Virus record (IMG/VR): IMGVR_UViG_3300021399_000162
Length of the DNA stretch: 64,000 nucleotides
Strand: one strand, 5' to 3'
Source of the DNA: an uncultured virus (IMG/VR IMGVR_UViG_3300021399_000162)
Lineage: Duplodnaviria > Heunggongvirae > Uroviricota > Caudoviricetes
In this document: one piece after another, positions 1,087 through 64,000 of the stretch
How the letters are laid out: every line of letters starts with the position of its first letter
How positions within the stretch are numbered: the stretch's first letter is position 1
Translations under genes and position numbers: made by a program
Notes under the pieces: model-generated
Seen by the model: the letters and a program-made list of their open reading frames with translations, nothing else
Databases searched by the model: none
Told to the model about the DNA's origin: nothing

Positions 1087-1452
1087 ATGAATGAAAGCAT
1101 CCTTGAAACAGTTCGGGTCGCCTGCAATGTCGGTCCCGACAACACTGACTTCGACAATGAATTGATCTTGTATACCAATTCTGTCCTGGCTATTGCTACA
1201 CAGCTTGGCATCGGACCTAAGACTGGCTTTCATATTACAGGCGAGTCCGAGTCTTGGCAGGAATTCCTAGGCGACATGAATGCAGATGCCATTAACACTA
1301 TCCAGACATACATCGGAAAGAAAGTTAAGTCGCTCTTTGATCCTCCAGTTTCCTCAGCTGTCAAGGAAAGTTTGGAGCGCAACCTTGCTGAACTTGAGTG
1401 GCGCAGTAATGTGGCCGCTGAATCTATTGAATTGGAGGGAACAAGCCCATGA
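1087..1452 (+). CDS. Head-tail adaptor/connector protein
   Basis: SIL...FDNELI..N...QLGIGP...LFDPP...ELEWR pattern of gp6/gp15-like connectors. Confidence 0.6.
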   Translation: MNESILETVRVACNVGPDNTDFDNELILYTNSVLAIATQLGIGPKTGFHITGESESWQEFLGDMNADAINTIQTYIGKKVKSLFDPPVSSAVKESLERNLAELEWRSNVAAESIELEGTSP

Positions 1453-3137
1453 GTGTAATACTTGTTTCCAATGAGCTATCTGGGCATTATCTGATGCATT
1501 ATCGCACCAGGGGTTCAAAGAATGGTGTACGGCTTTACCAGAACCCTGATGGCACTTTAACTCCTCTCGGTCGTGAGCATTATGGTATTGGCGAGGATAA
1601 TCGACGCTATGCTCGATTTGAATCAACCATCACCAAGAATACGAGTAACGCCAGTAAGCACGAGTCAAAGGCTGCTGAAATAAAACGAGATCTCGATAAA
1701 GACGAAGCCCGAATGATTAAGGGTAAGTCACATATGACCGATTGGGATCGAACCAAGCTTCTCAAGAAGTACTATAAGCTGAACACCAAGTCATTTGCAT
1801 ATCAGCGTAAAGCTGAACGGGGCAAATACAAGCTTATGAAGTTCCTCAGTAAGGTGCAGAAATCTTACGATGACACTGTAGCACATGCTGATTCAGAGGC
1901 CAATTTCAAAGCTTTCCTCGACAGTTTAACCGAAGAACAGCGTAACGCTCTCTATGTTATCTTCGATGACATCCTTCCGGATGACGATGATGGGCAGCTT
2001 GAACAGAACGGCACAGATGGCGCATATCTTGCACATTTCAGAACCAAGGGATCTGAGAATGGCGTAAGAAGGTACCAGTATGAAGATGGAACTTACACTC
2101 CACTCGGTCGAATCCACTATGGTATCGGTCTAGGTCGTAAAAAGAAAGGCAATGGCGAATCTGATTCTTCTGGATCTGAAAAGCGGCAGACAAGAGCTGA
2201 GAAGAAAGAAGCCCGTCGCAAAGCTCGAGCAGAAAAAAGAGAGCAGTCCAAAATTGAACGGAAAGCTCTCAAAGATGCTGCCGAACTGGAACGCAAGAAT
2301 ATTAGAAACCTTACTGATGAGGAACTCCAGGCTCGCATCAATAGACTCAGCAAAGAGAAGCAATTGGATCAGCTTATCCGAGAGCAGTCCGAACGAGCAT
2401 CTTCGCCTCTTCGCCAGAAAGCATCAAAATTGCTGAGCGAAGCAGCCGAGAATCTTGCCAAGCAGGCTCTTAGCACTCTTACTCAGAAGGCGATCAGTAA
2501 GATCGGTGAAAGACTTGATGAGAAGGAAGTCATCGATCTGAGCAGATACAAGGACGTTGACCTCTTCTCCCTCAAGTCTGACGAACTCGCCAAGATCCAG
2601 GATGCCTTTGCTAAGGCTGGTCAGATTGCCGAGAATCGCAATAAGGTATTCTCCAACGTTGAGAATGCTGAAAGGCGTGAGAAGGCTAAGAGAGACGAAG
2701 AAGAGAGACAGCGGCGCGAAACTGAGAAGAAGGCTGAAGCAGAACGTAAGAAAGCCGAAGCTGAGCAGAAAGCCACTGAAGAAAAACAGAGAGCTGAGGC
2801 AGCAAAGCGCCAAGCCGAAGAAGAGAAACGCAGAGCAGAGCAGAAGGCCGAAGATGATCGTCGAGCAGCTGAGCGTAAAGCTGAGAATGACCGGCGTGCT
2901 GAAGAGAAGCGTCTGGAAGATGCAAGGAAGTATGCCGAGAAGATGGCTCGCCTGAAACAGGCTGAGAATGACCGTAAAGCTAAGCAGGATGCCAAAGATG
3001 CCAAGAAGTCTGGAGATGCACCTTCTACTTCTGTTGTCAACCAGGCAAAGCGAATGGAAAACTTTGGGTATAGTCCTAGAGAAATTGCTGCTGCACTTGG
3101 CCTATCTGAGGATACTGTGAAGAAGATTCTCAGGTGA
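1449..3137 (+). CDS. Probable internal virion protein: two H(Y/F)RT.GS.NGVR.YQ..DGT.TPLGR.HYG repeats, long E/K/R/A coiled coil, C-terminal HTH
   Basis: Duplicated motif visible in the translation; C-terminus GYSPREIAAALGLSEDTVKKIL is HTH-like. Confidence 0.6.
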   Translation: MSVILVSNELSGHYLMHYRTRGSKNGVRLYQNPDGTLTPLGREHYGIGEDNRRYARFESTITKNTSNASKHESKAAEIKRDLDKDEARMIKGKSHMTDWDRTKLLKKYYKLNTKSFAYQRKAERGKYKLMKFLSKVQKSYDDTVAHADSEANFKAFLDSLTEEQRNALYVIFDDILPDDDDGQLEQNGTDGAYLAHFRTKGSENGVRRYQYEDGTYTPLGRIHYGIGLGRKKKGNGESDSSGSEKRQTRAEKKEARRKARAEKREQSKIERKALKDAAELERKNIRNLTDEELQARINRLSKEKQLDQLIREQSERASSPLRQKASKLLSEAAENLAKQALSTLTQKAISKIGERLDEKEVIDLSRYKDVDLFSLKSDELAKIQDAFAKAGQIAENRNKVFSNVENAERREKAKRDEEERQRRETEKKAEAERKKAEAEQKATEEKQRAEAAKRQAEEEKRRAEQKAEDDRRAAERKAENDRRAEEKRLEDARKYAEKMARLKQAENDRKAKQDAKDAKKSGDAPSTSVVNQAKRMENFGYSPREIAAALGLSEDTVKKILR

Positions 3138-6145: not shown

Positions 6146-7978
6146 ATGAAAGACTACGATTTCTGTGGTTACGCCACAAGGAACAACATTCGTTGCTCTG
6201 ACGGCCGTACCATCATGAAAAATGCGTTCGCAGACGACGATGGAAAGCGTGTTCCTCTTGTCTGGAACCATCAGCATAACGATCCGACCAATGTTCTCGG
6301 CCATGCAGACCTTGAGAACCGAGAAGATGGTGTGTTCGCTTATGCCAAGTTTAATGACACTGAGAGCGGTCAGAACGCCAAGCAGCTTGTGATGCACGGT
6401 GATATTTCTGCTCTTAGCATTTTCGCAAACAAGCTTCAGGAGCAGTCTGGCAAAGTTATGCACGGCATTATCCGTGAGGTGAGCCTCGTTCTTGCTGGCG
6501 CTAATCCTGGCGCAACAATCGACTCTTTCGTCGCTCATAACGATGACGGTCAGATTGTTGAAGACAGAACTCAGGGTTGCTTCTATTCAGGCCTTGAGGG
6601 GGAACTTTATCATGCAGATGATTCGGACAAAAACGATGACGAGTCTAAGGATGACAAGGAACCTGCCGAAAAGACTGAAGGACGTACCGTTGAGGATGTC
6701 ATGAAAACATTTACCGATGAGCAGAAGATTGTAATTAAAGCTCTGCTCGAGTCCGCTATCCAGAAAGACAGCGACGATGAAGAGTCATCCGACAACGATG
6801 ACGACGATGATGAGGAGGAATCCGAAATGAAGCATAATGCCTTCGACAACGAAACTACCCCTGAAGAAAACTACATCAGCCATGCTGACGAAGTGGCGAT
6901 CGTGAAGAACGCAAAGAACCCTGCTATCGGCACCCTTAAGGGAGCTATCGCAGCCTACTGCGAAGAGAAGGGCCTGGAACACGGCTTTGACACCGCCAGC
7001 ACTACCTTCCTGCTTCCCGAATACAAGGATCTCAAGGGCGGCGCTCCTGAGATGCTCACCGACGATCAGGGCTGGATCTCTAAGGTTCTGCAGAAGGTTC
7101 ATAAGAGCCCGATGACCCGTATCCGCACTCGTTTCACCGACATCCGGAACATCGAGAACCTGCGTGCAAAGGGTTACAAGCAGAAGGGCGAACGGAAAGT
7201 CCTGACCGGGGACTATTCTGTGATCTATCGTACCACTGACGCTCAGACTGTGTACGTTCGTTCCAGCCTGCATCGTGATGATGTTCTGGACATCACCGAT
7301 TTCGACGTTGTGCAGTATCAGTACAACATCGATAAGATGATGCTCAATGAAGAACTGGCAACTGCTATCCTGCTCGGTGACGGCCGCGACGATGGCGACG
7401 AATTCCGCATTCATCCTGACAAGATCCGTCCTGTCTGGACCGATGATGAGCTCTATACAATTCATCGTACTGTTGACTTTGCTGCCATCAAGGAGCAGCT
7501 CCAGGGTGAAAACACCGGCGCTTACTTCGGCGAAGGCTTTGTCTATGCTGAAGCATTCATCCAGGAACTTCTGTATGGCCGTGAAGATGCCAAGAACCTT
7601 GGCCAGGGCGATCTGTACATCACTCCTCATGCTCTCAACCGCATGCTGCTCGCCCGCGACATGAACGGTCGTCGCATCTATGAGACTACTGAACAGCTCC
7701 GCTCTGCCCTGAATGTCGGCAGCATCATTACTGTCGAACAGTTCGAAGGCAAGCAGCGCTCTGTCACGGTTGAAGGCGCCACCAAGAAGAAGAATCTGCT
7801 TGGTATGGTTGTCAACCTGAACAACTATTACCTGGGCTGCAACAAGGGCGGCGAAATCACCCACTTCACCGACTTCGACATCAACTTCAACACCCTTGAG
7901 AGCCTGCTGGAAACCCGTTGCTCTGGTTCCAACACTCGTCCGTTCAGCGCTCTGGTGCTTGAAGAAGACGTTGCCTAA
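6146..7978 (+). CDS. Prohead protease-major capsid protein fusion (HK97-like)
   Basis: N-terminal protease (VPLVWNHQH, LSI, EVSLVLAGANPGA), acidic linker, then a capsid domain from MKHNAFD; strongly biased codons. Confidence 0.88.
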   Translation: MKDYDFCGYATRNNIRCSDGRTIMKNAFADDDGKRVPLVWNHQHNDPTNVLGHADLENREDGVFAYAKFNDTESGQNAKQLVMHGDISALSIFANKLQEQSGKVMHGIIREVSLVLAGANPGATIDSFVAHNDDGQIVEDRTQGCFYSGLEGELYHADDSDKNDDESKDDKEPAEKTEGRTVEDVMKTFTDEQKIVIKALLESAIQKDSDDEESSDNDDDDDEEESEMKHNAFDNETTPEENYISHADEVAIVKNAKNPAIGTLKGAIAAYCEEKGLEHGFDTASTTFLLPEYKDLKGGAPEMLTDDQGWISKVLQKVHKSPMTRIRTRFTDIRNIENLRAKGYKQKGERKVLTGDYSVIYRTTDAQTVYVRSSLHRDDVLDITDFDVVQYQYNIDKMMLNEELATAILLGDGRDDGDEFRIHPDKIRPVWTDDELYTIHRTVDFAAIKEQLQGENTGAYFGEGFVYAEAFIQELLYGREDAKNLGQGDLYITPHALNRMLLARDMNGRRIYETTEQLRSALNVGSIITVEQFEGKQRSVTVEGATKKKNLLGMVVNLNNYYLGCNKGGEITHFTDFDINFNTLESLLETRCSGSNTRPFSALVLEEDVA

Positions 7979-33767: not shown

Positions 33768-33840
33768 GACTTTAACCTAGGATAAAAGTCCTAATCTAGG
33801 TTAAAAATTCTGCATTCGCGAAATTTTCCATTGGTATTAT

Positions 33841-34172: not shown

Positions 34173-34213
34173 TTTTCTTTTTTTCTTTTCGCGAATTTTT
34201 CTAATAGTATTAT

Positions 34214-34293
34214 GGAAGGAAGTAAGTGACACGAATGTTGTTGGTGAAACGCCAACCTTCTGTGTGGATTTCGTTGGTCCCACACAGCCTTCC
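34214..34293 (+). ncRNA. Second copy of the ~80-nt structured RNA domain
   Basis: Aligns with 33841-33921, with compensatory changes in three helices. Confidence 0.7.
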
Positions 34294-34296
34294 AAA

Positions 34297-34395
34297 GCTT
34301 TGAATGTGGTACAAGTGGTAGAACAGCATACGGCGAACGCAGTGAAAAGTCGATCGCTATGGAAGATTAGGGTTCGAATCCCTACGTTCAAAGCA
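34297..34395 (+). ncRNA. tRNA-like element with enlarged anticodon-arm region
   Basis: GCTTTGAATG/CGTTCAAAGC closing stem, D-loop AAGTGGTAG, T arm TAGGG-TTCGAAT-CCCTA. Confidence 0.65.
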
Positions 34396-34466
34396 AAGAA
34401 TATTCTTTTTTTCGTCCGCGAAATAATCTATGTGTATTATGAAATACATAAAAAGGAGGTATCCTC

Positions 34467-35822: not shown

Positions 35823-35861
35823 CGCGATATTTTCAGGCTCCTCTTTGAAGGAGGGATTGAC

Positions 35862-36860
35862 ATGATCCAAAGCAATTCTTACAATGGTAACCGCCTCGAC
35901 AGCAGGATTCCTACCAACTTGGAGGAATTCGGAATGAACGCACAAACTAATCTGGTAGACTTTATTGATACTTGGTTGACGGTGTTCAAGTCAAAGACGG
36001 TTAAATCTGCTTCTTTCGAGAGATTGAAGCAGAGTCGTAATTCCCTTGTGCCCTACCCTATCGCAAAGATGGCTATTGGTGAGATTGGATTCTTCGATGT
36101 ACAGCTGTACGTGAACAGTCTTGTTGAGGCTGGGTATAGTATGAGCAGTTTGAAGAAACAGCTATTGATAGTCACCGCCCCACTTAAACAGGCAGCGGCT
36201 ATGAAGATCATTAACTGTGATCCGAGTGTTGGCGTACAGCTTCCCATTGCGGATGCAGTACAGAAAAAGGCTCGGGAGGTCAATGCCTACACCAAGCCTG
36301 AACAGAAAGCATTGGCGGATCTTGTCTCTGCCAATAAGGAGAATACTGGATATATTGCGGCTCTCTTTATGCTTGAGACAGGAATTCGTAGCGGTGAGCT
36401 TCTGGCGCTTAAATGGTCTGACGTAGATATTTCACAGTGCAAGCTCAGGATTCATGCGACGATTGTGAATCCGATGAGCAACAAGAAGAGTGCCTACCAG
36501 GATTCGCCAAAGAGTGCAAGCAGCAAACGTACGATCCCACTTACACCCAAAGCTTTGACGCTTCTCAAGATATTGCAGCTCAGACGTAAAACCGAGTGGG
36601 TCTTTGAGCAGGACGGTAAACGGTACACGTATAAGAAGCTGATGTACCAGACCAAGAAGCTTTGTAGCGAGAGTGGAGTTCCGTATTATGGTGAGCACGC
36701 ATTCAGGCACACCTTCGCGACGAATTGCTACTACAAGGGAATTGACGTTAAAATCCTGAGTAAGTTGCTTGGCCATAGTTCAGTCCAGGTCACCTACAAT
36801 ACTTACATTCACTTGTATGGTGATGGGTTTGACACTATGTATGCAGCACTTTGCTTCTGA
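35862..36860 (+). CDS. int: Tyrosine integrase
   Basis: TGIRSGELLALKWSDVD, PKS..S.RTIPL, HAFRHTFAT, LLGHSS...T...Y.H catalytic residues. Confidence 0.93.
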   Translation: MIQSNSYNGNRLDSRIPTNLEEFGMNAQTNLVDFIDTWLTVFKSKTVKSASFERLKQSRNSLVPYPIAKMAIGEIGFFDVQLYVNSLVEAGYSMSSLKKQLLIVTAPLKQAAAMKIINCDPSVGVQLPIADAVQKKAREVNAYTKPEQKALADLVSANKENTGYIAALFMLETGIRSGELLALKWSDVDISQCKLRIHATIVNPMSNKKSAYQDSPKSASSKRTIPLTPKALTLLKILQLRRKTEWVFEQDGKRYTYKKLMYQTKKLCSESGVPYYGEHAFRHTFATNCYYKGIDVKILSKLLGHSSVQVTYNTYIHLYGDGFDTMYAALCF

Positions 36861-40248: not shown

Positions 40249-40306
40249 TTTCAAGCGGAGAGTCTGTGACAGGACTCTTCCGTTTTGACTTGAAGGAGGA
40301 CTAAAC

Positions 40307-40627
40307 ATGACAGATTATCTCAATAAAATTCTTAATGAATTCCAAAAGATTCCCGAAGACAAGCGTGCAAAAGTATTTGGCGAAGTCGCCGTAGCATTGT
40401 TCGGCAGCGGTAGGTCAACTCTTAATCCGGTACCTTTTGAACAGTGTGGAGCAGATCTCGATGGAGATATTTTGTATTATCACGGGCAGCCGGTTGTTGT
40501 AGATTATCGCAAAGTATGGTTCAATGGATACAAGACAGCTGCTCAGGCGCTTCCTTATGATACAGCTTTCGCTAACAGCGTTAAATGCGCTCGTGAGGAG
40601 ACACAACATGGACGAAAGGATTGTTGA
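40307..40627 (+). CDS. Hypothetical protein
   Basis: 106 aa; RBS AGGAGG. Confidence 0.55.
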   Translation: MTDYLNKILNEFQKIPEDKRAKVFGEVAVALFGSGRSTLNPVPFEQCGADLDGDILYYHGQPVVVDYRKVWFNGYKTAAQALPYDTAFANSVKCAREETQHGRKDC

Positions 40628-40877
40628 TTATATTCCGATGTCTGAAAAGCGTCGAGAGAAATGGGATAAACGAAATCTGATTGCGGTTAAATGCCCAAAA
40701 TGCAAAACCCGTTTTGTTTTGGATAAAAAAGACGCAGACAATTACCATTCCAAAGACGAAGTCGCTTGTCCTGAGTGTGGTTTTACGCATTATCACTGGA
40801 GTTCATATGTAACCTGGAATTTTACGTACAACATTGCAAAATTTTTAAGGAGGAAATTCGATGAAGATGATCTTTAA
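40608..40877 (+). CDS. Zinc-ribbon protein
   Basis: CPKC...CPECG. Confidence 0.6.
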   Translation: MDERIVDYIPMSEKRREKWDKRNLIAVKCPKCKTRFVLDKKDADNYHSKDEVACPECGFTHYHWSSYVTWNFTYNIAKFLRRKFDEDDL

Positions 40878-41292
40878 AGTCCTGCTTGGTGTTGTGGGCA
40901 CGTATGCAGTTGGTAAGATTTGCTATGAAATTGGAAAGGATGTTGGTTCTGTTGAGGCTCAGCTCAAGAATGATCCTGATACAGAGGATCTTGAGCACGA
41001 AGTTGATAACGATTCGGTAGAGTATGAGGTTTCTGATTTCGACAGCGATCCTCAGAAGACCGAAGAAAAGGCTGAGCCCGAACAGGAACCCGAACAGACT
41101 CCTGTCAAGAAACCTGGTTTCTTTGATAAACTGAAGGAGCTTCGGAGCGTCTCCAAGATTAAAGATATCTTTACCAAGAAAGATCAATCAGTTTTGGGTA
41201 AGATCCTGACCAATCCAGATGGCACGCAGATCAATGCCTCTGTTGAGAACGGTGAGATCCACATCAAGGTGAAACCAAAGAAACGCGAATAA
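40861..41292 (+). CDS. Hypothetical protein with N-terminal hydrophobic helix
   Basis: 143 aa; RBS AAGGAGG. Confidence 0.55.
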   Translation: MKMIFKVLLGVVGTYAVGKICYEIGKDVGSVEAQLKNDPDTEDLEHEVDNDSVEYEVSDFDSDPQKTEEKAEPEQEPEQTPVKKPGFFDKLKELRSVSKIKDIFTKKDQSVLGKILTNPDGTQINASVENGEIHIKVKPKKRE

Positions 41293-41350
41293 AGCGATGT
41301 CTATTATGGAACCATATCGGTTGGTTACCAGAAAAAAGGAGGATGATTTT

Positions 41351-41707
41351 ATGAAAATCTACGTAGTTCCTGAAGATGACAGCATGAAAGCAAAGGCGAA
41401 AGCTTGGTTCAAAAATCGGTGGGCAGATGCTCAGGATTTTGCGGAAAGGCACCCGGTGTTTACTTGGGTTGTACTCCCTTGTATGCTCGGTGGCGCGTGT
41501 GAATTGACCAAGGGTTTGATCAAGGCGCACAACCTCGGCAAGGAGGAAGCACTTAAGAATCTCTACTGCTATGACCGCAAGCTTGGACATTACTGGAAGC
41601 TAAGCGATGTGCTGAGCAATGACCAGTGGCTTGAAGTGCAGAATCGGATGGACAACGGAGAAAAACTTGGTTCAATCCTTGATTCGATGGGAGCGCTGAA
41701 ACGGTGA
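41351..41707 (+). CDS. Hypothetical membrane protein (promoter cassette)
   Basis: Promoter 41284; central TM helix; YDRKLGHYW.L. Confidence 0.6.
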   Translation: MKIYVVPEDDSMKAKAKAWFKNRWADAQDFAERHPVFTWVVLPCMLGGACELTKGLIKAHNLGKEEALKNLYCYDRKLGHYWKLSDVLSNDQWLEVQNRMDNGEKLGSILDSMGALKR

Positions 41708-41796
41708 CAAAAGAAACGGTTGAGTCTGTGACAGGACTCTTCCGTTTTTCTTTCGCGAAAAAAGCTTGGCCTATTATGGAAAGGAGGTTCCATCAT

Positions 41797-41994
41797 ATGG
41801 TTGATTGGATTAAAGACAAACTTGATGACATCGACTGGCTGAATGTTGGCAAATGGTTGTGTCTTCTTGGCGGAGGTCTGCTTACTTTGATAGGTGGCAC
41901 AGTCTTCGGCGAGAAGATCAAAGACAGGCAATTCAAGAAGACAGTCGAGAAAGAAGTGAGGTCTCGGCTTGATCAGATTACGAAGAACAAATGA
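41797..41994 (+). CDS. Small membrane protein (promoter cassette)
   Basis: Promoter 41754; one TM helix; downstream hairpin. Confidence 0.6.
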   Translation: MVDWIKDKLDDIDWLNVGKWLCLLGGGLLTLIGGTVFGEKIKDRQFKKTVEKEVRSRLDQITKNK

Positions 41995-42058
41995 CCAAAT
42001 TGAAGAGTCTGTAAAAGGACTCTTCCGTTTTGACTTGGATTGAATTGGAGGAAAGCTT

Positions 42059-47691: not shown

Positions 47692-50600
47692 ATGGATTTC
47701 GTCCTGATCACGCACAGGTTTACAAAAGACGGGGCAGTGGAGGTGTACCCAAAGTTCATAATCAAAAGTCCTTCAGAGGATCTGATGATTAAAGGCGGAG
47801 ACTTCTACGCGGTTTGGGTAGAAGACCGACAGCTTTGGTCTACCGTAGAGCAGGACGTAATCGATCAGATTGACACACTCCTTGACAAATACGCCAAGGA
47901 GAATGCCACCAGGTTCGAGCCACGTCGTGTCAGAGTTCTACATATGTGGGACGCTGAGACTGGCATGGCCGACCGGTGGCATAAGTATTGTAAGCAGCAG
48001 ATGCGTGACTCGTTCCACATGCTGGATGAGAAACTTATATTCTCCAATACTGTCGTTAAAAAAGAAGACTATGCCTCCAAGAGACTTCCCTACCCGCTTG
48101 AGGAGGGGAAGACAGAGGCGTGGGATAAACTGATCGGAACCCTCTACAGTCCCGAAGAAAAACATAAAATCGAGTGGTGTATTGGAGCGATTGTCAGTGG
48201 TGACAGCAAGAAGCTCCAGAAGTTCATGGTTTTGAATGGCGATCCAGGAACAGGCAAATCTACACTGCTCGATATTTTGGATAAGAAGCTGTTTGTAGGG
48301 TACACAGATTCCGTGGACTCTTCAGCTTTGGGTTCTTCCTCGAACTCATTTGCTTTGGAGAGCTTCAAATCCAATCCGTTGGTCGCCATTCAGCATGAGG
48401 GTAACCTGAGTAGGATTGAGGACAACACTCGACTCAACTCACTGGTTTCCCACGACAAGATGACAGTCAATGAGAAGTTCAAGACCGCATATTCAAATGC
48501 ATTTAAGACGTTCTTGATACTTTCTTCAAACAGACCTGTCAAGATCACCGATGCTCGAAGTGGTTTGCTGAGACGATTGATAGACGTCATGCCAACTGGT
48601 GACAAGGTTGAGCGTAACGAATACGATCGGCTCAATACTCAGATCGACTTTGAGCTCGGTGCCATTGCTTGGAAGTGTCTCAAGATATATGAGGCGGACA
48701 AGCATTACTACGACACCTACGTCCCTACCCGAATGCTCCAAGCCACAAACGACTTCTACAATTATATTATGGATGGCGACACGTGGCTTGCATTCAAGAA
48801 TGATGATAGTACTACACTCACTGCAGCTTGGGCACTGTATAACAAGTATTGCGAGTATGCCAAGGTGCAATACCCGATGACACTCAGGCCGTTTAAGGAG
48901 GAGTTGAAGAATTATTTCAAAGAGTACCATGACCGCATCACGATTGACGGCGTCCGAGTCAGATCATACTACAAAGGATTCAAGTATGATAAATTCGAAA
49001 AAGACGAAGATGACGTTAGTATTCAAACCACTGTGGCCAAACAAGAGGGTATACATAGCTCTGAAGCCACGAAAGGATGGCTGCACCTGACCAAGATACC
49101 TAGTCTGCTTGATATTGAGCTGGCAGGTATGAAGGCACAGTATGCTCCACCTGAAGGCAAACACATGCGAACTTGGGATAATGTCACAATGACTCTGGCT
49201 GATCTGGACACGAGCAGACTTCATTATGTTCTTGTTCCGGATCAGCTTATTGTTGTTGACTTCGATATTACTGGTGAGAATGGCGAGAAAGATCTGGAAA
49301 GGAATCTTGAGGAAGCTTCGAAGTGGCCTGCGACCTATGCAGAGCTCAGTCAGAGCGGTAAAGCCATTCACCTGCATTATTACTACCAAGGCGATAAGAG
49401 TCTTCTCAGCAGCGTTTATGATGACAAGATTGAGATAAAGACTCTTACTGGCAAGCAGTCACTCAGGCGGAAACTGAGCTTATGTAATGATATTCCAATT
49501 GCCAAGATTTCCAGTGGTTTGCCAATGAAGGAGGTTAAGAAGACGCTAGATACTAAGCGGCTGTCAAGCGAGAAAAGTTTGAGAGAACTGATCAAGCGGA
49601 ATCTTGCAAAGGAGATACACCACGGGACCAAACCCTCAATTGACTTCATCTACAAAATTCTTGAGGATGCCTACGCAAGCGAGCTGAGTTATGACGTATC
49701 TGACATGCGTAATGCGATCACAGCGTTTGCGGCTGGCAGTACTCATCAGCCTGACTATTGTCTCAAGGTTGTTAACCGGATGAAGTTCATGTCTGAGGAC
49801 AAGATTCAGAGCGCTGTACAAAAAGCCGAAAACGGTTCGCGTATGGTGCCTTGCGATCTTGAGATATTTCCAAACCTGTTCCTCAACTGCTGGAAAGAAA
49901 TGGAAGACTATTCTCCGAACAGCTTTGAAGGAACACCGGAGGAGAAATGGCGTCAGTATATTGAGCGGCTGAAGGTTGATCACAAACCGGTTGTTAAGAT
50001 GTTCAACCCGAAGCCGTATGAGATTGAGGAATTTGTCAAGCGTCGGTTCTTTGGATTCAACAACCGGAACTATGACAATCATCTCATGTATGCGCGAATG
50101 ATGGGCTATAGCAACCTGCAGTGTTATACCTTGAGCAAACGCATCACAAGCAACGACCATACAGCTAAGTTCAGAGAGGCAAATGACCTGAGCGAGACTG
50201 ACGTGTATGACTTCGCATCTGCGAGTAATAAGAAATCTCTGAAGCAGCTTGAGATAGATATGGGGTTCTACCATCAGGAACTCGGTCTCGACTGGAACGA
50301 GGAAGTACCTGAGGAATTGTGGCCTAAGGTTGCAGCATATTGTGAGAACGATGTGCTGGCTACTGAAGCGGCATTTTGGTATCTCCAATCTGACTGGACT
50401 GCTCGAGAGATTCTGGCAGACATCGCTGGGATGACCGTGAACGATACGACAAACCAGCTGACAACCCGAATTATATTTGACCGGATGCGTAATCCTCAGA
50501 GTGAATTCCAGTATAGGAATCTCGCTTTGCCGGTTAAGGAATTAAAGGAAGAGGTTCTGAAGTTCCTGCGTGAGGCTGATCCTGAGATGATGAGTCATCT

Positions 50601-51942
50601 GCACGGTGATGAAGAGTCTCTCCTACCCTACTTTCCAGGTTATGTCAAAGAGAACGGTATCTCGACGTACAGAGGTGAAGAGGTCGGTGAAGGCGGTTAC
50701 GTCTATGCCGAGCCTGGTTGTTATATTGATGTGGCATTGCTTGACGTTGCATCAATGCACCCACACAGTATTATTGCCGAGTGCCTCTTTGGTCCAAGAT
50801 TTACGAAGAGATTCAAGGAAATCGTTGACGGTCGTGTTGATATTAAGCACGAAGCCTGGGATGAATGTAATAAGATCCTGGATGGAAAACTTGGGCCTTA
50901 TATTGAGAAGGTCAAGCGTGGTGAATTGACTTCCAAGGAACTCGCTAATGCTCTTAAGACGGCCATCAACTCAGTATACGGCTTGACTTCAGCAGCCTTT
51001 GATAATGCGTTCAGAGATCCTCGTAACGTCGATAACATCGTTGCAAAGCGTGGCGCATTGTTCATGGTTAACCTGAAGCATGAAGTCCAGGAGCGTGGAT
51101 TCACAGTCGCTCACATCAAGACAGACTCAATTAAGATCCCGAATGCAACTCCGGAGATCATCAAGTTTGTCATGGATTATGGCAAGGACTATGGATACAC
51201 GTTCGAACACGAGGCTACATATGAACGTATGTGTCTCGTGAATGACGCTGTATATATTGCAAGATATGCGACAGCGGATAAGTGTAAGGAACTCTATGGA
51301 TATGCTCCTGGCGAGAATGCCAAGCACGGTGGTCAGTGGACAGCTACAGGAAAGCAGTTTGCTGTGCCGTATGTCTTCAAGACCCTGTTTAGTCATGAAC
51401 CGATTGTGTTCAATGACTTGTGCGAGACGTTTAGAGTCACTGGAGCATTATATTTGGACAATAATGAAGGTCTTCCTGATGTGAGTGAGTACGAGAAAGA
51501 ACTGAAGAAGTTCCTCAAGGAAAACCAGGCTGATTGGGAAGAGTACAACGATCATCTGAAATATGCTTACACACTTGATGAAAGGGCCGAGAATCCAGTT
51601 GCAGCTCGCTTTGAGGACAAGTGTAGATATTTTGATGAGCAGATTGCCAAAGGCCACAACTACCAGTTTGTGGGACGCGTTGGATTGTTCACACCTGTAA
51701 AGCCAGGAACTGGCGGTGGATTGTTACTTCGGAGATCCGATGATAACAAGTTCACCTCTGCTACTGGTGCTAAAGGATTCAGGTGGGTCGAAAGCACGTC
51801 GATCAATGCTGAGAGAATTATCGCCAATGGCAAACCAACGTTTACTATGGACGACATTGATCATGGCTTTTACATTAAGCTTGTTGACGATGCCAGAAAT
51901 GCAATTAGCCAGTATTGTGATTTTGACTGGTTTGTGAATTGA
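47692..51942 (+). CDS. Helicase (SF3/D5-like) - primase - 3'-5' exonuclease - family-B-like DNA polymerase fusion
   Basis: GDPGTGKST; VDFD...ELSQSGKAIHLHY; DLEIF, GFNNRNYD, YCENDV; LDVASMHP, K.AINSVYG, HIKTDSI. Confidence 0.85.
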   Translation: MDFVLITHRFTKDGAVEVYPKFIIKSPSEDLMIKGGDFYAVWVEDRQLWSTVEQDVIDQIDTLLDKYAKENATRFEPRRVRVLHMWDAETGMADRWHKYCKQQMRDSFHMLDEKLIFSNTVVKKEDYASKRLPYPLEEGKTEAWDKLIGTLYSPEEKHKIEWCIGAIVSGDSKKLQKFMVLNGDPGTGKSTLLDILDKKLFVGYTDSVDSSALGSSSNSFALESFKSNPLVAIQHEGNLSRIEDNTRLNSLVSHDKMTVNEKFKTAYSNAFKTFLILSSNRPVKITDARSGLLRRLIDVMPTGDKVERNEYDRLNTQIDFELGAIAWKCLKIYEADKHYYDTYVPTRMLQATNDFYNYIMDGDTWLAFKNDDSTTLTAAWALYNKYCEYAKVQYPMTLRPFKEELKNYFKEYHDRITIDGVRVRSYYKGFKYDKFEKDEDDVSIQTTVAKQEGIHSSEATKGWLHLTKIPSLLDIELAGMKAQYAPPEGKHMRTWDNVTMTLADLDTSRLHYVLVPDQLIVVDFDITGENGEKDLERNLEEASKWPATYAELSQSGKAIHLHYYYQGDKSLLSSVYDDKIEIKTLTGKQSLRRKLSLCNDIPIAKISSGLPMKEVKKTLDTKRLSSEKSLRELIKRNLAKEIHHGTKPSIDFIYKILEDAYASELSYDVSDMRNAITAFAAGSTHQPDYCLKVVNRMKFMSEDKIQSAVQKAENGSRMVPCDLEIFPNLFLNCWKEMEDYSPNSFEGTPEEKWRQYIERLKVDHKPVVKMFNPKPYEIEEFVKRRFFGFNNRNYDNHLMYARMMGYSNLQCYTLSKRITSNDHTAKFREANDLSETDVYDFASASNKKSLKQLEIDMGFYHQELGLDWNEEVPEELWPKVAAYCENDVLATEAAFWYLQSDWTAREILADIAGMTVNDTTNQLTTRIIFDRMRNPQSEFQYRNLALPVKELKEEVLKFLREADPEMMSHLHGDEESLLPYFPGYVKENGISTYRGEEVGEGGYVYAEPGCYIDVALLDVASMHPHSIIAECLFGPRFTKRFKEIVDGRVDIKHEAWDECNKILDGKLGPYIEKVKRGELTSKELANALKTAINSVYGLTSAAFDNAFRDPRNVDNIVAKRGALFMVNLKHEVQERGFTVAHIKTDSIKIPNATPEIIKFVMDYGKDYGYTFEHEATYERMCLVNDAVYIARYATADKCKELYGYAPGENAKHGGQWTATGKQFAVPYVFKTLFSHEPIVFNDLCETFRVTGALYLDNNEGLPDVSEYEKELKKFLKENQADWEEYNDHLKYAYTLDERAENPVAARFEDKCRYFDEQIAKGHNYQFVGRVGLFTPVKPGTGGGLLLRRSDDNKFTSATGAKGFRWVESTSINAERIIANGKPTFTMDDIDHGFYIKLVDDARNAISQYCDFDWFVN

Positions 51943-52863: not shown

Positions 52864-52967
52864 TTTCAGGCCTAAAGGTCTTGAGTGTGACAGCTCAAGG
52901 CCTTTTAGGCTTTGCCCGCGAGTTTTATACCTCCTATTATGAAATAAAACTTAAGGAGGTTTTTCTC

Positions 52968-53240
52968 ATGTCGTTTGATAGTATCGTATGTGTTTATTTC
53001 TGTGTTGGAATGATCTCATTTCCATGGATGAGCATAGCCATGGCACTGTATGTAAACCATGGTGAAGATCCGGCAACGGGGCTTAAGATTATTGTGGATA
53101 GCCACAGTAACATTGAGCTTCTGATTGGGTTCTTCATCATGATTATTCTGTGGCCACTGGTGCTGCTTGGAACTGTAAAAGGGATGTTCCAACGAGAAAA
53201 AGCACGCGAACTTGTGAACACACAGGAGACGGACGAGTAA
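52968..53240 (+). CDS. Two-TM membrane protein, cassette 2
   Basis: YF.VG and ILWP motifs. Confidence 0.65.
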   Translation: MSFDSIVCVYFCVGMISFPWMSIAMALYVNHGEDPATGLKIIVDSHSNIELLIGFFIMIILWPLVLLGTVKGMFQREKARELVNTQETDE

Positions 53241-53342
53241 TTTCAGACTTGAAAGGTCTTGAGTATGACAGCTCAAGGCCTTTTAGGTTTTGTCCGCGAT
53301 ATTTGCACCTCCCATTATGAATAAGATTAAGGAGGTGCCTTT

Positions 53343-53591
53343 ATGGCAACTATTTGGACTATTATCTGTTGGTATTCGCAAATTGGTAAGATCGTGTATA
53401 TACTCTGCCGCTGCTTGTACTGGTTCAACGAAGGAGGCGGAAACTTCATCCGTGGCATCAAAGCCTGGTTTAACAAACTTGGCAGTCATGCTGAAGATGA
53501 ATTAAACCTGATCTTCGTTGCCTGGTTACTGTGGCCGGCTCTTATATACAAGACCATCAAGTTGCTTCGTGCCAAAGATGTAGCAAAATGA
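53343..53591 (+). CDS. Membrane protein, cassette 3
   Basis: Y..IG and LLWP motifs. Confidence 0.65.
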   Translation: MATIWTIICWYSQIGKIVYILCRCLYWFNEGGGNFIRGIKAWFNKLGSHAEDELNLIFVAWLLWPALIYKTIKLLRAKDVAK

Positions 53592-53796
53592 TTGTCTACT
53601 GGTAGAACTAAATCGGTTCGATTTAAAAGGTCTTGGGTATAACAGCTCAAGGCCTTTTGAGTTTTGACTTGGAGGTGAGTGCGATGGATTACAGGAGTAT
53701 CACTTGTAGTAGATATTTCTATACTTGGGAGCTTGAAGTCCGTAATGGATACCATCCACCTAAAAAGAAGAGACGATTGTGGAAGGAGTTTGTACA

Positions 53797-54458: not shown

Positions 54459-54527
54459 GCGCGAATTTTGCATCCTCCATTATGAACAGAACGTTCACAA
54501 TAAAATTAAATTTGGAGGATTTGACTT

Positions 54528-56734: not shown

Positions 56735-56885
56735 CAAAATTGATAAGCATCTTAAGGCACTGATTCCGGAACCGCCTAAGGATGTTATTGAGAATGATGA
56801 TCCTTTCCGAACTGGATATTTGAAAGATGGTATGAAACTTAGTGTTACTTGTGATGTTGAGGAGGGCAACACAGATGAAATTTGA
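56664..56885 (+). CDS. Hypothetical protein
   Basis: RBS AAGGAGG before MTADEE. Confidence 0.45.
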   Translation: MTADEERLERAKIKQLEKIATILDKIDKHLKALIPEPPKDVIENDDPFRTGYLKDGMKLSVTCDVEEGNTDEI

Positions 56886-57693
56886 TGGAAAGAACCTTGA
56901 AGAAGTATTGGCAGCACAAAAACGGTATGTTGAGGAATGGGTTAGTCACGGCGAAGTAGAAGCATCTATAGCTGATTTCAGCGAATGCCAGTTGAGGGGT
57001 ATTGATTTCTCTCGTCGTGATTTGAGTGAGGCTGATTTCTCCGGCTGCTATCTGATTGAATGTAAATTCAATGATGCCAATCTACACAGTGCTAATTTCA
57101 GGAATGCCACTCTGGAAGAAGTAGAGTTCAAATCTACGAAAATGACTTGTGTAGATTTTGAGAATGCTCGTATTGATGTAAGCATTTTCGAAGATGTGAG
57201 TCTTTATTACGCCAATTTCCATAATGCTCAACTGATGTATACGGATATTAACCATTCCAGGATCAACGATGACACCTGTTTGTGTGGTCTTAGACTGCAT
57301 AAGGTCAAGAATATGCCTTATGTTCCCATGGTCTGTCCTGAAGAGGGTGAGTTCATTGGATGGAAGGCTTGCGACTATGGATATTCTGATTTCCACAAGA
57401 GTCAGACAGTCATTGTGAAGCTGCGTATACCTGCTGATGCAAAACGTTCGTCCGCTCTTGGTCGTAAGTGTCGTGCAAGCAAAGCTGAGGTGCTGGCTGT
57501 GTATGATCTTGACGGTAACGAATTGGACCCAGCGATTACTCCTCATTCCTTCTTTAATGATAACTTCATGTACCATGTCGGAGCCATTGTTGAACCAACT
57601 GTCCCCTTTGAGGAAAACCGTTGGGAGGAATGCGCTCCTGGTATTCACTTCTTTATCAACCGTCGGGAAGCAATTGAGTATGTAAGTGTTTAA
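56875..57693 (+). CDS. Pentapeptide-repeat protein with DUF5758-like C-terminus
   Basis: ADFS/ANF repeats; CPEEG.FIGWK...IP.DAKRSSA.GRKCRAS.A...W.ECAPGIHFFI.R.EA. Confidence 0.8.
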   Translation: MKFDGKNLEEVLAAQKRYVEEWVSHGEVEASIADFSECQLRGIDFSRRDLSEADFSGCYLIECKFNDANLHSANFRNATLEEVEFKSTKMTCVDFENARIDVSIFEDVSLYYANFHNAQLMYTDINHSRINDDTCLCGLRLHKVKNMPYVPMVCPEEGEFIGWKACDYGYSDFHKSQTVIVKLRIPADAKRSSALGRKCRASKAEVLAVYDLDGNELDPAITPHSFFNDNFMYHVGAIVEPTVPFEENRWEECAPGIHFFINRREAIEYVSV

Positions 57694-57723
57694 ATTATAT
57701 TTAATTAAGGAGGATTTAACTTT

Positions 57724-58533
57724 ATGAAATATGACGGAACTAATCTTGAGGCTGTGTTGAAAGCCCATAGAAGTTATCTTGCCAATGTAAAAAATGAGGA
57801 TGGGTCCAGGGCTGATTTCTCTGGAGAGGTTCTTGAGGACTTAGATTTTAGTATGAGAGAATTGGCTGGTGCAGATTTTTTTGGTACTACAATTAAAAAT
57901 TGTAACTTCTGTGATGCTAATCTGAAGTTTTCAGATTTCAGTAATGCTAGCATTGGCAACAGCCGGTTCAGCCGTGCTCAGATCTATGCAGCTAATCTCA
58001 CTAATTCACACTTTTGGTGTTGCCAGATGGATAATGTCAATCTTGAAAGCGCTTGCATGCGTTATGCGCGTTTAAGATATGGTGATTTTGAAAACGCTGT
58101 GATCAGTCCCACTACTGATTTATGTGGTCTTAACGTAGCTCATGTGAAAAATATGTTTTATGTGCCAATGGCTTGTCCTGAAGAAGGCGAGTTCATTGCT
58201 TGGAAGAAGTGTGTGGCCGTTGACCGAGATGGAACAGGGCTGCATAAAGAGGTTATTGTGAAGCTGAAGATCCCTAAAAGGGCTCGTCGGTCGTCTGCTC
58301 TTGGCCGTAAGTGTCGTGCAAGTGAAGCTATTGTCTTAGCCATTCAGGACCTTAAAGGCAATGACATTAGTCGTAAAGTTGCAGCTTTTTCATCATACTG
58401 CAATGACTTTGCATATGAGCTTGGTAAGACAGTTATACCTCGTGAACCTTTTGATGATGACCGTTGGAACGAGTGTTCAACCGGCATTCACTTCTTTATT
58501 AACCGCAAGGAAGCGGTCGACTATTCACTGTGA
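57724..58533 (+). CDS. Second pentapeptide-repeat/DUF5758-like paralog
   Basis: Same architecture as the upstream gene. Confidence 0.8.
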   Translation: MKYDGTNLEAVLKAHRSYLANVKNEDGSRADFSGEVLEDLDFSMRELAGADFFGTTIKNCNFCDANLKFSDFSNASIGNSRFSRAQIYAANLTNSHFWCCQMDNVNLESACMRYARLRYGDFENAVISPTTDLCGLNVAHVKNMFYVPMACPEEGEFIAWKKCVAVDRDGTGLHKEVIVKLKIPKRARRSSALGRKCRASEAIVLAIQDLKGNDISRKVAAFSSYCNDFAYELGKTVIPREPFDDDRWNECSTGIHFFINRKEAVDYSL

Positions 58534-60569: not shown

Positions 60570-60890
60570 AAAATGGCCATTTTGCTGCCCACCCAAAAGT
60601 GGGCAGAAGGTGGGCAGAGGGTGGGCAGAAGCGGTTTTTGGCGATTTTTGTTAACAATTTGTTCACAATTTTCTAATCAAATTTTAATTTTTTGGGTCAA
60701 AAATTGCAAAAAAGTGGCCAAAAGTGGCCAGCTGCCCACCCTCTGCCCACCCAGGGTGGCCAGCTGAAACCGTTGGGGCCCAAGGGTTTGAGGGGTGTCT
60801 GCCCGGGTGGCCGGGTTTTTTCTTAACTAATATATAAAAGATAATTATATATATTAAGTAGGGAAAAAGGGTGGCCACCTGGCCAGATAG
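60570..60890. repeat. Probable replication origin: GGTGGGCAG/GTGGCCA repeats, 20-bp inverted repeat, AT-rich tract
   Basis: GGTGGGCAGAGGGTGGGCAG (60609-60628) versus CTGCCCACCCTCTGCCCACC (60732-60751); AT tract at about 60824-60860. Confidence 0.6.
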
Positions 60891-61317: not shown

Positions 61318-61522
61318 ATTTTTATAGGCTTATCGCAAAATGAAGAGTCATTGTACTGATATTTGTGCAGTGGCTCTTTCTTTTGTCCTTTTTGTCTTAT
61401 TTTTATACCATTTCTTCCGCGATTTTTGCAATCTCTATTATGAAGAGAAAAGAACCTATTCGGCGACTTTCTCTTTTTCGTTTGTCAATGATATTTGGTG
61501 TGTTTTGGAGGTGATTCGGGCC

Positions 61523-61831
61523 ATGGCTCAGAACGAACGAGTGTTTCAGGCTAAGCTTATTAAAGAGCTTCATACACGCTTTGATCCTTGTATCGTTACC
61601 AAGATGGATTCCGGTCACATCCAGGGCATACCAGATCTACTGATATTGCGCGGAAACAAATGGGCTACACTTGAAGACAAGAAGTCCAAAGACGCCTCGC
61701 ATCGTCCTAACCAGGACTATTACGTTTCGCAAATGAACGGCATGTCTTTTAGCCGTTTTATTTATCCTGAGAATAAGGAGGAGGTTCTGAATGAGCTCTC
61801 AAACTTTTTCCTTGGACCGAACGCGCAGTAA
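61523..61831 (+). CDS. VRR-NUC/Holliday junction resolvase-like nuclease
   Basis: E..FQ..LIKEL, QGIPDL.IL, LE.KKS..A..RPNQ.YY. Confidence 0.8.
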   Translation: MAQNERVFQAKLIKELHTRFDPCIVTKMDSGHIQGIPDLLILRGNKWATLEDKKSKDASHRPNQDYYVSQMNGMSFSRFIYPENKEEVLNELSNFFLGPNAQ

Positions 61832-61868
61832 ATGATATTCCCTTTCGCTGCAAGAAAGGACCTAACAC

Positions 61869-62426
61869 ATGCAATTTAACAAGCATTACAACCTTGAAGG
61901 CAGTCATGCTTTTCTTGGTGCCAGCAAATATCATTGGATAAACTACGACGAAGAGAAACTCATCGCAAGCTACAATAGCTTCCTGGCTGCACAGAAAGGC
62001 ACAGAGCTTCATAGCTTTGCTGCACAGTGCATTAAACTTGGCCAGCGTCTTCCAAAGAGTCACAAGACTCTCAATATGTATGTGAACGACGCTATTGGTT
62101 TCAAGATGGTCCCCGAGCAGGTGCTGTACTATTCAGACAACTGTTATGGCACAGCAGACTCAATTATATTCAAAGATGATTTCCTCAGGATCCACGATCT
62201 TAAGACTGGCGCGACACCGACTCATATGGAGCAGCTAATGATATATGCTGCTCTTTTTTGTTTGGAGTACAGAGTTAAACCTGGTCTGATAGGTATGGAA
62301 CTGAGAATCTACCAGAACGATGATATTGCTATTCTGCAGCCTCAAGCCACTGATATTCTCCCGATCATCGACAAAATTGTGACATTCGATAAACTCATCA
62401 ATAAGATTAAAGAAGTAGAGGGTTGA
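61869..62426 (+). CDS. PD-(D/E)XK (Cas4-like) exonuclease
   Basis: HAFL.AS..HW, GTELH, EQ.L, GTAD, IHDLKTG, QL.IYA. Confidence 0.75.
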   Translation: MQFNKHYNLEGSHAFLGASKYHWINYDEEKLIASYNSFLAAQKGTELHSFAAQCIKLGQRLPKSHKTLNMYVNDAIGFKMVPEQVLYYSDNCYGTADSIIFKDDFLRIHDLKTGATPTHMEQLMIYAALFCLEYRVKPGLIGMELRIYQNDDIAILQPQATDILPIIDKIVTFDKLINKIKEVEG

Positions 62427-64000
62427 TGTGTATGAATTCCGTAACTAAAGAAATGATATTGCATTTCAGCGGCGATCCTCTGCTGCTTGAGGGTGTCGAC
62501 GATGATATTGATGTCATTGATGTATTTCTTATGCATTCCGGACGAGGCCACGATGATAATCCTCCAGGACGAGGATCTGGAGTACTTCCGTGGGGTTCTG
62601 GTGAAAATCCTTACCAGCATGCAGGTGATTTTGTCACTCGTGTTAAGCGTGCTCGTAAGCAGCATCCAGAGCTCAGCCAGGATGATATTGCTAAGATGGT
62701 TGGCTGCAAGAGTGCCAGCGATCTTAAGAAACAGTACTCTAAGTCTTTGTCTGTTTATAGAGTTGGCAGAAACAAAGAGATCGATGCTCTTCTTAAAACC
62801 GGCATGACTCAGCAGGCTGTGGCTGATAAATTCGGCGTCAATGAATCTACACTTAGATCTTGGCTGAATCCAGAAAGCCGTAAGAAAGCAGAAAAGTCTC
62901 AGATCATTGCTGATGGCTTGGAGAAGCTCGTTAAGGAACGTGGACTGATAGATGTTGGTGCTGGTGTTGAGAAAGAACTTAACTGTTCTAAAGAAAAGCT
63001 CAACGAAGCTCTGGCCATTCTTCAGGATAAAGGATATCCAATTTATGGCGGACGTGTTCCTCAGGCTACAAATCCTGGCAAGCAGACTACTATTAAAGCA
63101 CTTGGTGATCCGAGCAGTGATGTTAAGTGGAGCGACTTATATCAGCATCCTGAAAAGATTCAGTCTGTTACCGATTATATTGTCCGTGAAGGTCCTGATG
63201 GTCAGGAGGTATTTACTAAAAAATGGCAGTATCCTGCAGCCATTGATCCTAAGCGCATTATGATCAGATTCCGGGATGATATTGCTCCTGATGGTCATAC
63301 TGGCATTGAGCGAGACGGCACAATCGAGATTCGTCGCAATGTTCCTGATCTTGATCTCAAAGGTAGTCATTACGCTCAGGTTCGCATCATGACTCAGGAT
63401 GGCCATTATCTCAAAGGTATGGCTCACTATGCATCTGAGGAAATGCCTGAAGGTGTTGATGTGATATTCAACACCAATAAGACAAGAGCTCAGGCTGATA
63501 TTGTCTTTAAGAAGATTAAGAGTGATCCGAACAATCCTTTTGGCGCTCTTCTTAGAGAGAATGGCGGTCAATACACTTATATTGATAAAGACGGCAAAGA
63601 GAAACTTGGACTGATAAACAAAACCCGGCAAGAAGGTGACTGGGAAGATTGGGATGATACTCTTCCTTCGCAGTTCCTTGCTAAACAGCCAAGAGAGCTG
63701 ATTGAGAAACAGCTCGGCAAATCAATCGCAGCTAAGAAAAAAGAATATGAGGAACTGATATCCTTAACCAATCCTACGGTTAAGAAGAAGTTGCTTGAAG
63801 ACTTTGCTAATGGCTGTGATTCTGACTCTATTCATCTTACCGCCGCTAAACTTCCAAGACAGAAATACCAAGTGATATTGCCTCTGCCGACTTTGGATGA
63901 TAATGAGGTTTATGCTCCGAACTTCAAGAACGGCGAAACGATTGCTCTTATAAGATATCCGCATGCTGGATTGTTTGAAATTCCGATTCTCAAGGTTAAC
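62426..64000 (+). CDS. Putative phage-encoded single-subunit two-barrel RNA polymerase, N-terminal part; truncated by the window end and missing from the ORF track
   Basis: Frame open for 525 codons: SG..PWGSGENPYQH, two HTH-like segments, DG.IE.RR.V.DL, YAQVRI, EGDW..W...L.SQFL.KQ, LIRYPHAG.FEIP. A catalytic DxDGD would lie beyond the window. Confidence 0.65.
   Translation, partial: MCMNSVTKEMILHFSGDPLLLEGVDDDIDVIDVFLMHSGRGHDDNPPGRGSGVLPWGSGENPYQHAGDFVTRVKRARKQHPELSQDDIAKMVGCKSASDLKKQYSKSLSVYRVGRNKEIDALLKTGMTQQAVADKFGVNESTLRSWLNPESRKKAEKSQIIADGLEKLVKERGLIDVGAGVEKELNCSKEKLNEALAILQDKGYPIYGGRVPQATNPGKQTTIKALGDPSSDVKWSDLYQHPEKIQSVTDYIVREGPDGQEVFTKKWQYPAAIDPKRIMIRFRDDIAPDGHTGIERDGTIEIRRNVPDLDLKGSHYAQVRIMTQDGHYLKGMAHYASEEMPEGVDVIFNTNKTRAQADIVFKKIKSDPNNPFGALLRENGGQYTYIDKDGKEKLGLINKTRQEGDWEDWDDTLPSQFLAKQPRELIEKQLGKSIAAKKKEYEELISLTNPTVKKKLLEDFANGCDSDSIHLTAAKLPRQKYQVILPLPTLDDNEVYAPNFKNGETIALIRYPHAGLFEIPILKVN

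Follow-up and report, generated by a model that had tools for sequence, protein, structure and literature searches.

The DNA analysed here, a window of 64,000 nucleotides (nt) from an uncultured tailed phage (IMG/VR record IMGVR_UViG_3300021399_000162, Caudoviricetes), breaks off inside a gene for a predicted two-barrel RNA polymerase. By its predicted fold, its catalytic residues and its four helix-turn-helix (HTH) modules, the gene product is a single-chain enzyme. We propose that it is DNA-dependent and finds a recurrent promoter-like motif (class I), including the copy before its own operon, without a host sigma factor. Sequence, structural model and motifs together make this proposal probable. 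The four steps of the mechanism differ in strength. Going by the model, the protein would very probably synthesise RNA on a DNA template. Its HTHs are likely to bind the CGCG/CGCA and ACA boxes of the motif, ten bases apart, with RNA beginning at the purine after TATTAT. We lean slightly towards a third step, in which an L-x-H tag would load some of the enzyme into the head, where the head protease would trim it, and the enzyme would be injected to start infection. We are more hesitant about the fourth step and give it a little less than an even chance: the enzyme's own operon would provide positive feedback, and the same enzyme would later start at TCAAAATG (class II) in the structural genes. 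Which enzyme reads the motifs, where RNA starts, whether the polymerase is packaged and what class II does are matters that we infer. The idea of a self-contained transcription system, raised in a preliminary description of the window, is plausible.

That description had noticed a 525-codon open frame at 62426-64000 (+ strand) with LIRYPH near its end. The frame is there, and LIRYPH lies at 63947-63964. Possible start codons are TTG at 62423, ATG at 62426 and ATG at 62432 (all +). On the full contig of 65,840 bp the frame stops at 65434; the product has 1,003 amino acids (aa) if translation begins at the TTG and 1,000 aa if it begins at the second ATG (62432). We number residues throughout from the latter, so that the gene occupies 62432..64000 (+) and continues to contig position 65434.

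The expected R-x-P motif is R508-Y-P510, and the catalytic loop predicted to follow it beyond position 64000 is DFDGD (residues 561-565, contig 64112-64126). It begins 112 bases past the window edge and 53 residues after the R-x-P motif. Its presence averts the refutation that the preliminary description had tied to a missing DxDGD motif. The available part of PMC2919709 lists eight catalytic residues for all two-barrel enzymes. The corresponding D295, R318, K328, R508, P510, D561, D563 and D565 are invariant in aligned relatives (115/115 and 149-150/150): D295 occurs in 149/150, R318 and K328 in 150/150, and R508-Y-P510 and D561-F-D-G-D565 in 115/115 and 150/150. The first barrel region, at about residues 268-350 (63233..63481, +), holds D295, Q316-x-R318 and K328-G; its assignment as beta/Rpb2-type comes from the motif pattern and the aligned range, not from a residue-by-residue comparison. 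The second barrel, at about residues 475-572, begins in the window (63854..64000, +) with R508-Y-P510 and ends at contig 64147.

Searching the PDB by sequence, with the protein and with two profiles, returned no catalytic subunit of a polymerase; most matches were HTH-type and designed proteins. Hence, structure was needed to make the link to polymerases. The AlphaFold model (predicted local distance difference test, pLDDT, 84; predicted template modelling score, pTM, 0.75) has a predicted two-barrel fold. At E<=0.001, Foldseek returned 25 matches in the PDB (E 8e-9 for the two-barrel fold), and those listed are all two-barrel polymerases, namely QDE-1, RDR2 or phage gp64/gp62. In VIA comparisons the model aligns with QDE-1 at Z 14.9 (root-mean-square deviation 6.5, 395 residues aligned, model 268-834 with QDE-1 681-1196), with phage P32 gp64 at Z 12.9, and with Rpb1-type chains at Z ~10.5 (model 468-702). 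The residue correspondence with QDE-1 is read from the motif pattern and the aligned range, which counts against leaning on it too heavily. Catalytic residues, model, Foldseek and VIA all support the earlier identification as a polymerase.

The N-terminal HTHs suspected from the window are also borne out, as three HTH-like units by Pfam and the model (about residues 83-105, 127-144 and a winged module at 176-225; 62678..63106, +). Pfam places HTHs at 120-163 (HTH_23, E 1.6e-10; HTH_3, 5.9e-9), 181-206 (weak, E 0.0025) and 958-996. The last of these, a C-terminal unit that the model shows too (residues 961-995, contig 65312-65416, +), lies past the window and was out of reach of the preliminary description. 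The recognition helix of the second HTH is the best conserved of the N-terminal ones (E138 82%, S139 81%, R142 91%, n=150). A Pfam match to RNA-dependent RNA polymerase (RdRP) has E 0.006 here and 7e-6 in a relative.

The protein belongs to a large family. It matches phrog_4291 at E 5.4e-290 over residues 47-997 and finds matches in 250 phage records, 249 of which cover >=80% of its length; among the matches listed, identity is 33-42% over ~95% of the length, with 40.5% to the FP_oengus homologue. A homologue search gave at least 7,999 protein clusters, a profile search 1,063 clusters (50% identity) at E <1e-30, and bacterial genome assemblies hold 307 loci. The same family includes the protein of Lactococcus phage 1706, gp55 of FP_oengus and the actinophage 'HTH DNA-binding domain protein' of clusters AM, AU, AW, BI, CC, DJ and EL. 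Our protein differs from the 1706/FP_oengus proteins in nothing substantial: motifs, HTHs at both ends and gene order are the same.

The preliminary description missed that this family had already been predicted in print, in 2010 and 2021, and that the closest structures are QDE-1/RDR2 and Thermus gp64/gp62; it also missed the N-terminal L-x-H tag and the lack of sequence similarity to YonO. The accessible text of PMC2919709 treats the phage 1706 protein as one of five YonO-like families and calls its role an enigma. That of bioRxiv 10.1101/842583 describes DxDGD, HTHs at both ends and a potential polymerase. In these portions both sources predict without experiment, promoter, start site or packaging signal. 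Our literature searches found no experiment on the phrog_4291 family and, among the matches listed, nothing relevant on the two motif classes or the L-x-H tag; the available parts of PMC10276819, PMC13313380, PMC13432834, PMC7302621 and PMC5513430 do not discuss the polymerase or the motifs. The protein is a further member of an already predicted family. What is new is a model that names a promoter, a start base and a tag.

Could the protein instead be an RNA-templated polymerase, or a DNA-binding protein that does not transcribe, with the motif repeats serving as recombination boundaries? We regard this as very improbable. The best structural matches are indeed two eukaryotic cellular RdRPs, QDE-1 and RDR2 (Z 13-15, both barrels). 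The PHROG and RefSeq labels point the same way, and the portion of PMC2919709 available to us raises an RNA role and ties DNA dependence to funnel and switch-2 elements. QDE-1 and RDR2 are RNA-silencing enzymes with 11-15% identity, and the HTH regions lie outside the match. Against the RNA-templated and the non-transcribing readings stand the four HTHs, the double-stranded DNA nature of the phage, the invariant catalytic residues, and YonO and Thermus gp64, two single-chain two-barrel phage enzymes that work on DNA. Of these two, gp64 (gp62) of Thermus phages P23-45/P74-26, a non-virion polymerase, is among the closest structures (Foldseek E 3e-6), at 13% identity and about 590 aa; the available text of bioRxiv 2022.12.01.518664 reports phage-specific motifs for the Thermus phage polymerases. 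The Thermus phage has two enzymes, one of them fused to the tape measure, and gp96 is its virion enzyme; genomes of our family show a single credible DxDGD polymerase each on the coding strand. YonO of Bacillus phage SPbeta likewise is a single chain with R-x-P then D-x-D-G-D. It lacks a Pfam HTH, unlike the polymerase described here. We rejected homology to YonO because a profile comparison detected no similarity (probability 0.2%, E 0.31).

The two motif classes announced in the preliminary description both exist, far above chance. Class I, CGCGA-N13-(T/C)ATTATG, has 15 copies with a single spacing, all on the coding strand and all in the non-structural half (33.8-61.4 kb), compared with 0-1 copies in each of 30 Markov controls. 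One copy, at 61418..61442 (+), precedes an operon of two nucleases and the polymerase, with the predicted start at the G of TATTATG, 61442. The other 14 begin at 33817, 34190, 34417, 36862, 37537, 39043, 40081, 41284, 41754, 43217, 52516, 52917, 53295 and 54460 (+; the last ends at 54484). A weaker variant with a CTCTTT hexamer stands at 35823 (+) before the integrase, with a ribosome-binding site 3 nt after the hexamer.

The motif is a property of the family. Unbiased spaced-word counting recovered class I in FP_oengus, Lactococcus CHPC971, Arthrobacter Gordon, Streptomyces Rima and Gordonia Avazak, as well as in four virus contigs. The register is common to all five cultured phages, which have Firmicutes and Actinobacteria hosts. 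MT835495 did not yield class I as a repeat; it has a single site, and neither a DNA polymerase nor a helicase was matched there. The consensus drawn from 250 sites in 20 genomes reads C(G/A)C(A/G), an AT-rich part, ACA, five bases, TAT(A/T)AT and two purines. Counts over 20 genomes exclude MT835495 and the partial contigs G001 and G003, the latter two being used for logos only. In 17 of the 20, the polymerase frame has a class I copy 858-1,102 nt ahead of it. Bacterial-genome loci were chosen by protein alone (80 kept of 307, 77 with enough flank), and 75 of the 77 have class I upstream of the polymerase operon, compared with none on the reverse strand (0/77). Conversely, among the pattern-bearing contigs of >=50 kb within the first 80 of 161 loci, 22 of 24 encode the enzyme, in each case on the same strand as the motif. 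The two without it are G014, a family member that is 91% complete, and G016, with no family DNA polymerase match.

The 32-bp repeat of cluster AU, which the available text of bioRxiv 2020.01.10.891226 reads as a recombination boundary, is probably class I. This precedent favours the recombination reading. Against it, the motifs are one-stranded, stand before genes and abut ribosome-binding sites.

The preliminary description proposed that the enzyme reads one of the motif classes. Both motifs are real, and the reading itself is backed indirectly, most strongly for class I, for which we consider the phage polymerase quite likely to be the reader. A division of labour as in YonO phages is an alternative that we consider unlikely. 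Host polymerase, with or without a phage activator, would read class I, and the last class I promoter would make the phage enzyme, which would transcribe only the structural genes, starting from TCAAAATG or near the genome end. In the available text of PMC5467207, YonO is a DNA-dependent enzyme of a temperate phage that transcribes late genes, its promoter sequence being left open. The gene described here is the last of the large early genes, with the structural module following at once, and such a division would account for prophage induction. It would also suit the sharpness of TCAAAATG, with 177 late-sense, 4 late-antisense and 34 early-sense copies in the pooled genomes.

The details of class I argue the other way. 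A TTGACA-like -35 hexamer is absent 16-18 nt upstream, and the C(G/A)C(A/G) box stands instead at a fixed 13-nt spacer. The -11 adenine expected for sigma-A occurs in only 6 of 75 bacterial-genome operon sites, 0 of 15 FP_oengus sites and 3 of 19 sites in contig G002. Of the 158 class I sites with an identified ribosome-binding site, 36 have it beginning 1-4 nt after the hexamer. Genes resembling tRNAs, called at a relaxed ARAGORN threshold, start 1, 2, 5 and 6 nt past the hexamer; a fifth call overlapped the motif. A sigma-type start lies 6-8 nt downstream of the hexamer. Hence, most such ribosome-binding sites and tRNA-like genes would be cut off, unless they are made from read-through RNA only. 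Because of the rare -11 adenine (6/75) and the ribosome-binding sites right after the hexamer, the phage enzyme is the likeliest reader of class I. Transcription usually starts at a pyrimidine-purine step, and the T and purine at motif positions 24-25 fit this. Counted from such a start, the conserved boxes would fall at -24 to -21 and -14 to -12, separated by one turn of the helix, a spacing that suits tandem HTHs. Among non-structural genes present in all 19 other genomes, moreover, the polymerase is the only HTH or RNA polymerase match (19/19), and none of them has another HTH or sigma match. The tRNA-like genes (FP_oengus 2907, G004 48272, G008 and G022) have abnormal anticodon loops in three of four cases.

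Several observations weigh against the phage polymerase as reader. Over all 250 sites the -11 adenine is present in 71%, and in the window in 15 of 16; the actinophage hexamer has a perfect or near-perfect TATAAT consensus, and most actinophage sites resemble it. By eye, no covariation between HTH helix and motif variant is visible across the 20 genomes. Sampling matters too: 12 of the 20 genomes were picked for carrying the class I pattern, and many of the 77 bacterial-genome loci are closely related. That motif and enzyme occur together reflects shared ancestry, and any core gene would show the same pairing equally well. Finally, because the operon depends on class I, a prophage needs a first transcript made by the host, and a sigma-70 scan near the gene gave no sign of one (8 sites, compared with 11.3 expected). 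Two candidate host sites in that scan (both 9/12, 62368-62407) were set aside as evidence on the strength of the same count.

Class II, TCAAAATG, has 15 copies in the structural half of this genome and none in the other half, and occurs once on the reverse strand. The copies begin at 3983, 6141, 7987, 10041, 15537, 18779, 20717, 22387, 23557, 24453, 25559, 27377, 28025, 31383 and 32379 (+; the last ends at 32386). The copy at 3983 lies inside the terminase gene and keeps its position in 6 of 8 genomes, although it also codes for a conserved (I/V)-K-M. TCAAAATG is commoner in the structural half in 19 of the 20 genomes. Compared with synonymous shuffles, it exceeds all 100 in 9 of 20 genomes and the mean in 19 of 20, and the pooled counts of its single-base neighbours are 4-36.

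Alternatively, the enzyme may read class I only. TCAAAATG would then be a signal at the RNA level (processing, antitermination or translation), and read-through that begins in the polymerase operon and crosses the joined ends of the genome would make the structural genes. This is rather doubtful in our view, less so than the division of labour above, and it is compatible with the first three steps of our mechanism. No upstream box was found for class II, which lies mostly within coding sequence and sometimes itself supplies the start codon. In this tailed-phage genome, every gene with a family match is on the same strand. The first structural genes lack a preceding class II copy here (the first is at 3983) and in most genomes. 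This counts against the start role that we propose, and class II therefore cannot be the sole late start. On the other side, class II has the A-T-G-purine end of class I, a ribosome-binding site, where one follows, begins 0-3 nt from the G in 10 of 24 cases, and a terminator-like hairpin follows the small gene after the polymerase (contig 65694-65709).

A terminator-like hairpin with a T-run (61342..61389, +) lies just 5' of the 61418 site, and a leader hairpin with a T-run extends from the predicted +1 (61442..61480, +), a candidate attenuator. Pairing from the first base past the hexamer occurs in 51-80 of 89 leaders, compared with 56-87 of 230 other copies; the pair types vary and a U-run follows. 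When folded from further upstream a competing pairing appears, which makes the leader supporting and not clean evidence. The conserved hairpin and U-run could serve attenuation or stop read-through. For the anti-Shine-Dalgarno locks of the preliminary description, the sequence pattern is real: CCTC/CTCC occurs in 8 of the 16 class I spacers, and all eight have GAGG downstream. Across the family the association is 24/29 compared with 91/221 (Fisher p 4e-5, with non-independent sites), and in this genome alone p is 0.2.

Non-coding modules behind class I sites (33841-34400; Gordon 31594; G002 18118) share a GAAGGAAG...GACACG start, common to gut phages and an Arthrobacter phage. Rfam gave no match in the window, including the modules at 33841-34400. 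RNA-library contigs from two studies cover 33853-34056. They begin at 33853, 12 nt past the predicted start and 6 past a sigma-type start, a position that favours neither. The RNA data used were assembled contigs with small shares, and they gave no evidence on the polymerase gene itself.

Residues 33-57 (62528..62602, +), of low confidence in the model, contain the L-x-H region, a candidate signal for head packaging and protease cleavage. L-x-H stands near the N-terminus of 20/20 polymerases and 76/80 bacterial-genome copies, as L-x-H-x-G in 19 of the 20 genomes and as L-x-H-A in the remaining one. In protease-capsid spacers, L/I-x-H shows 7.6-fold enrichment (96 in 4,577 aa), which suggests a cut site of the head protease. 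In the window, the protease-capsid fusion (6146..7978, +) has three such sites in its spacer, at His 156, 246 and 279, and a head-module protein (1449..3137, +) carries the L-x-H-(Y/F)-R tag twice and has an HTH at its C-terminus. We found 43 proteins with DUF7211-type tags, in 21 clusters beyond the tag, 40 of them in the head module. Tagged genes also occur within the polymerase operon of the two closest relatives (L002:551-1513, L004:953-2856), and one head-module open reading frame (ORF) of G006 has a polymerase-type tag.

The polymerase shares only the L-x-H-x-G half of the DUF7211-type tag. A head-module tag profile scores its N-terminus weakly (best 9.0 bits, decoys <=5.5), and Pfam PF23847 (DUF7211) matches neither the polymerase nor anything among the listed families of six relatives; both results are unfavourable to packaging. 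A literature search found no virion proteomics. Judged from sequence features, packaging of the polymerase in the virion is marginally favoured. In T4, several head proteins that are otherwise unrelated begin with a short capsid-targeting sequence, at which the head protease cuts, and the late promoter is a short motif without an upstream box. The sequences differ and the likeness would be one of function only.

The phage was described as temperate. A tyrosine integrase is present (35862..36860, +), and relatives lie in contigs of Lachnospiraceae and Oscillospiraceae and, in one case, in a complete chromosome; this phage itself may be able to form lysogens. A CI-type repressor was never the best match among the 44 ORFs scanned, a part of all ORFs. 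A broader version of our proposal would cover the whole family in Firmicutes and Actinobacteria hosts. All transcription would be done by one sigma-free 110-kDa polymerase, head-tagged, protease-trimmed and injected, that uses its own HTHs to read an early promoter of three boxes, recognises an eight-base signal for late starts, and drives its own gene. Temperate members would be silent without a classical repressor, since the host enzyme cannot read the promoters, and would switch on by positive feedback through the attenuated leader. We offer this only tentatively and think it improbable as a whole. The predicted promoter, start base and tag make a large polymerase family readily testable in cultured phages of laboratory hosts. 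Should these predictions prove right, they would reveal how a minimal relative of the cellular enzymes can locate promoters without sigma, would help to explain how phages of this family cross host phyla, and would yield a compact, orthogonal system for gene expression in Gram-positive bacteria.

The contig ends overlap by 67 nt and host flank is absent. Head and tail genes occupy 0.3-33 kb, followed by small genes, the integrase, a fused primase-polymerase and a helicase (34-61 kb). After 61 kb come two nucleases, the polymerase gene and an 87-aa gene. The nucleases are an endonuclease (phrog_93) and an exonuclease (phrog_3953) by family matches (61526..62426, +). The 87-aa gene (phrog_4303; contig 65434-65697, +) lies directly 3' of the polymerase, as a small gene does in 5/5 cultured phages inspected, and its product is a possible polymerase cofactor; its model (pLDDT 91) has no PDB match at E<=0.001. 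The family gene context is thus present, with nucleases upstream, a small conserved gene downstream and the head module next. In Lactococcus CHPC971 the adjacent nucleases are absent.

Other features of the genome are of separate interest. The fused primase/helicase-DNA polymerase (1,416 aa, phrog_4210, 47692-51942) occurs in 19/19 relatives. A non-coding element at 60570-60890, with GGCCA/TGCCCACC inverted repeats and AT-rich runs, resembles the contig end at 65694-65725 and is a candidate replication origin or packaging-related site. Two repeated-hairpin families between small genes (52874-53695 and 40259-42037) are likely terminators or processing sites. A 106-aa ORF at 40307-40627 contains GADLDGD, similar to the polymerase catalytic loop, probably by chance or as a remnant. 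Two paralogues with pentapeptide-like repeats stand in tandem at 56842-58533.

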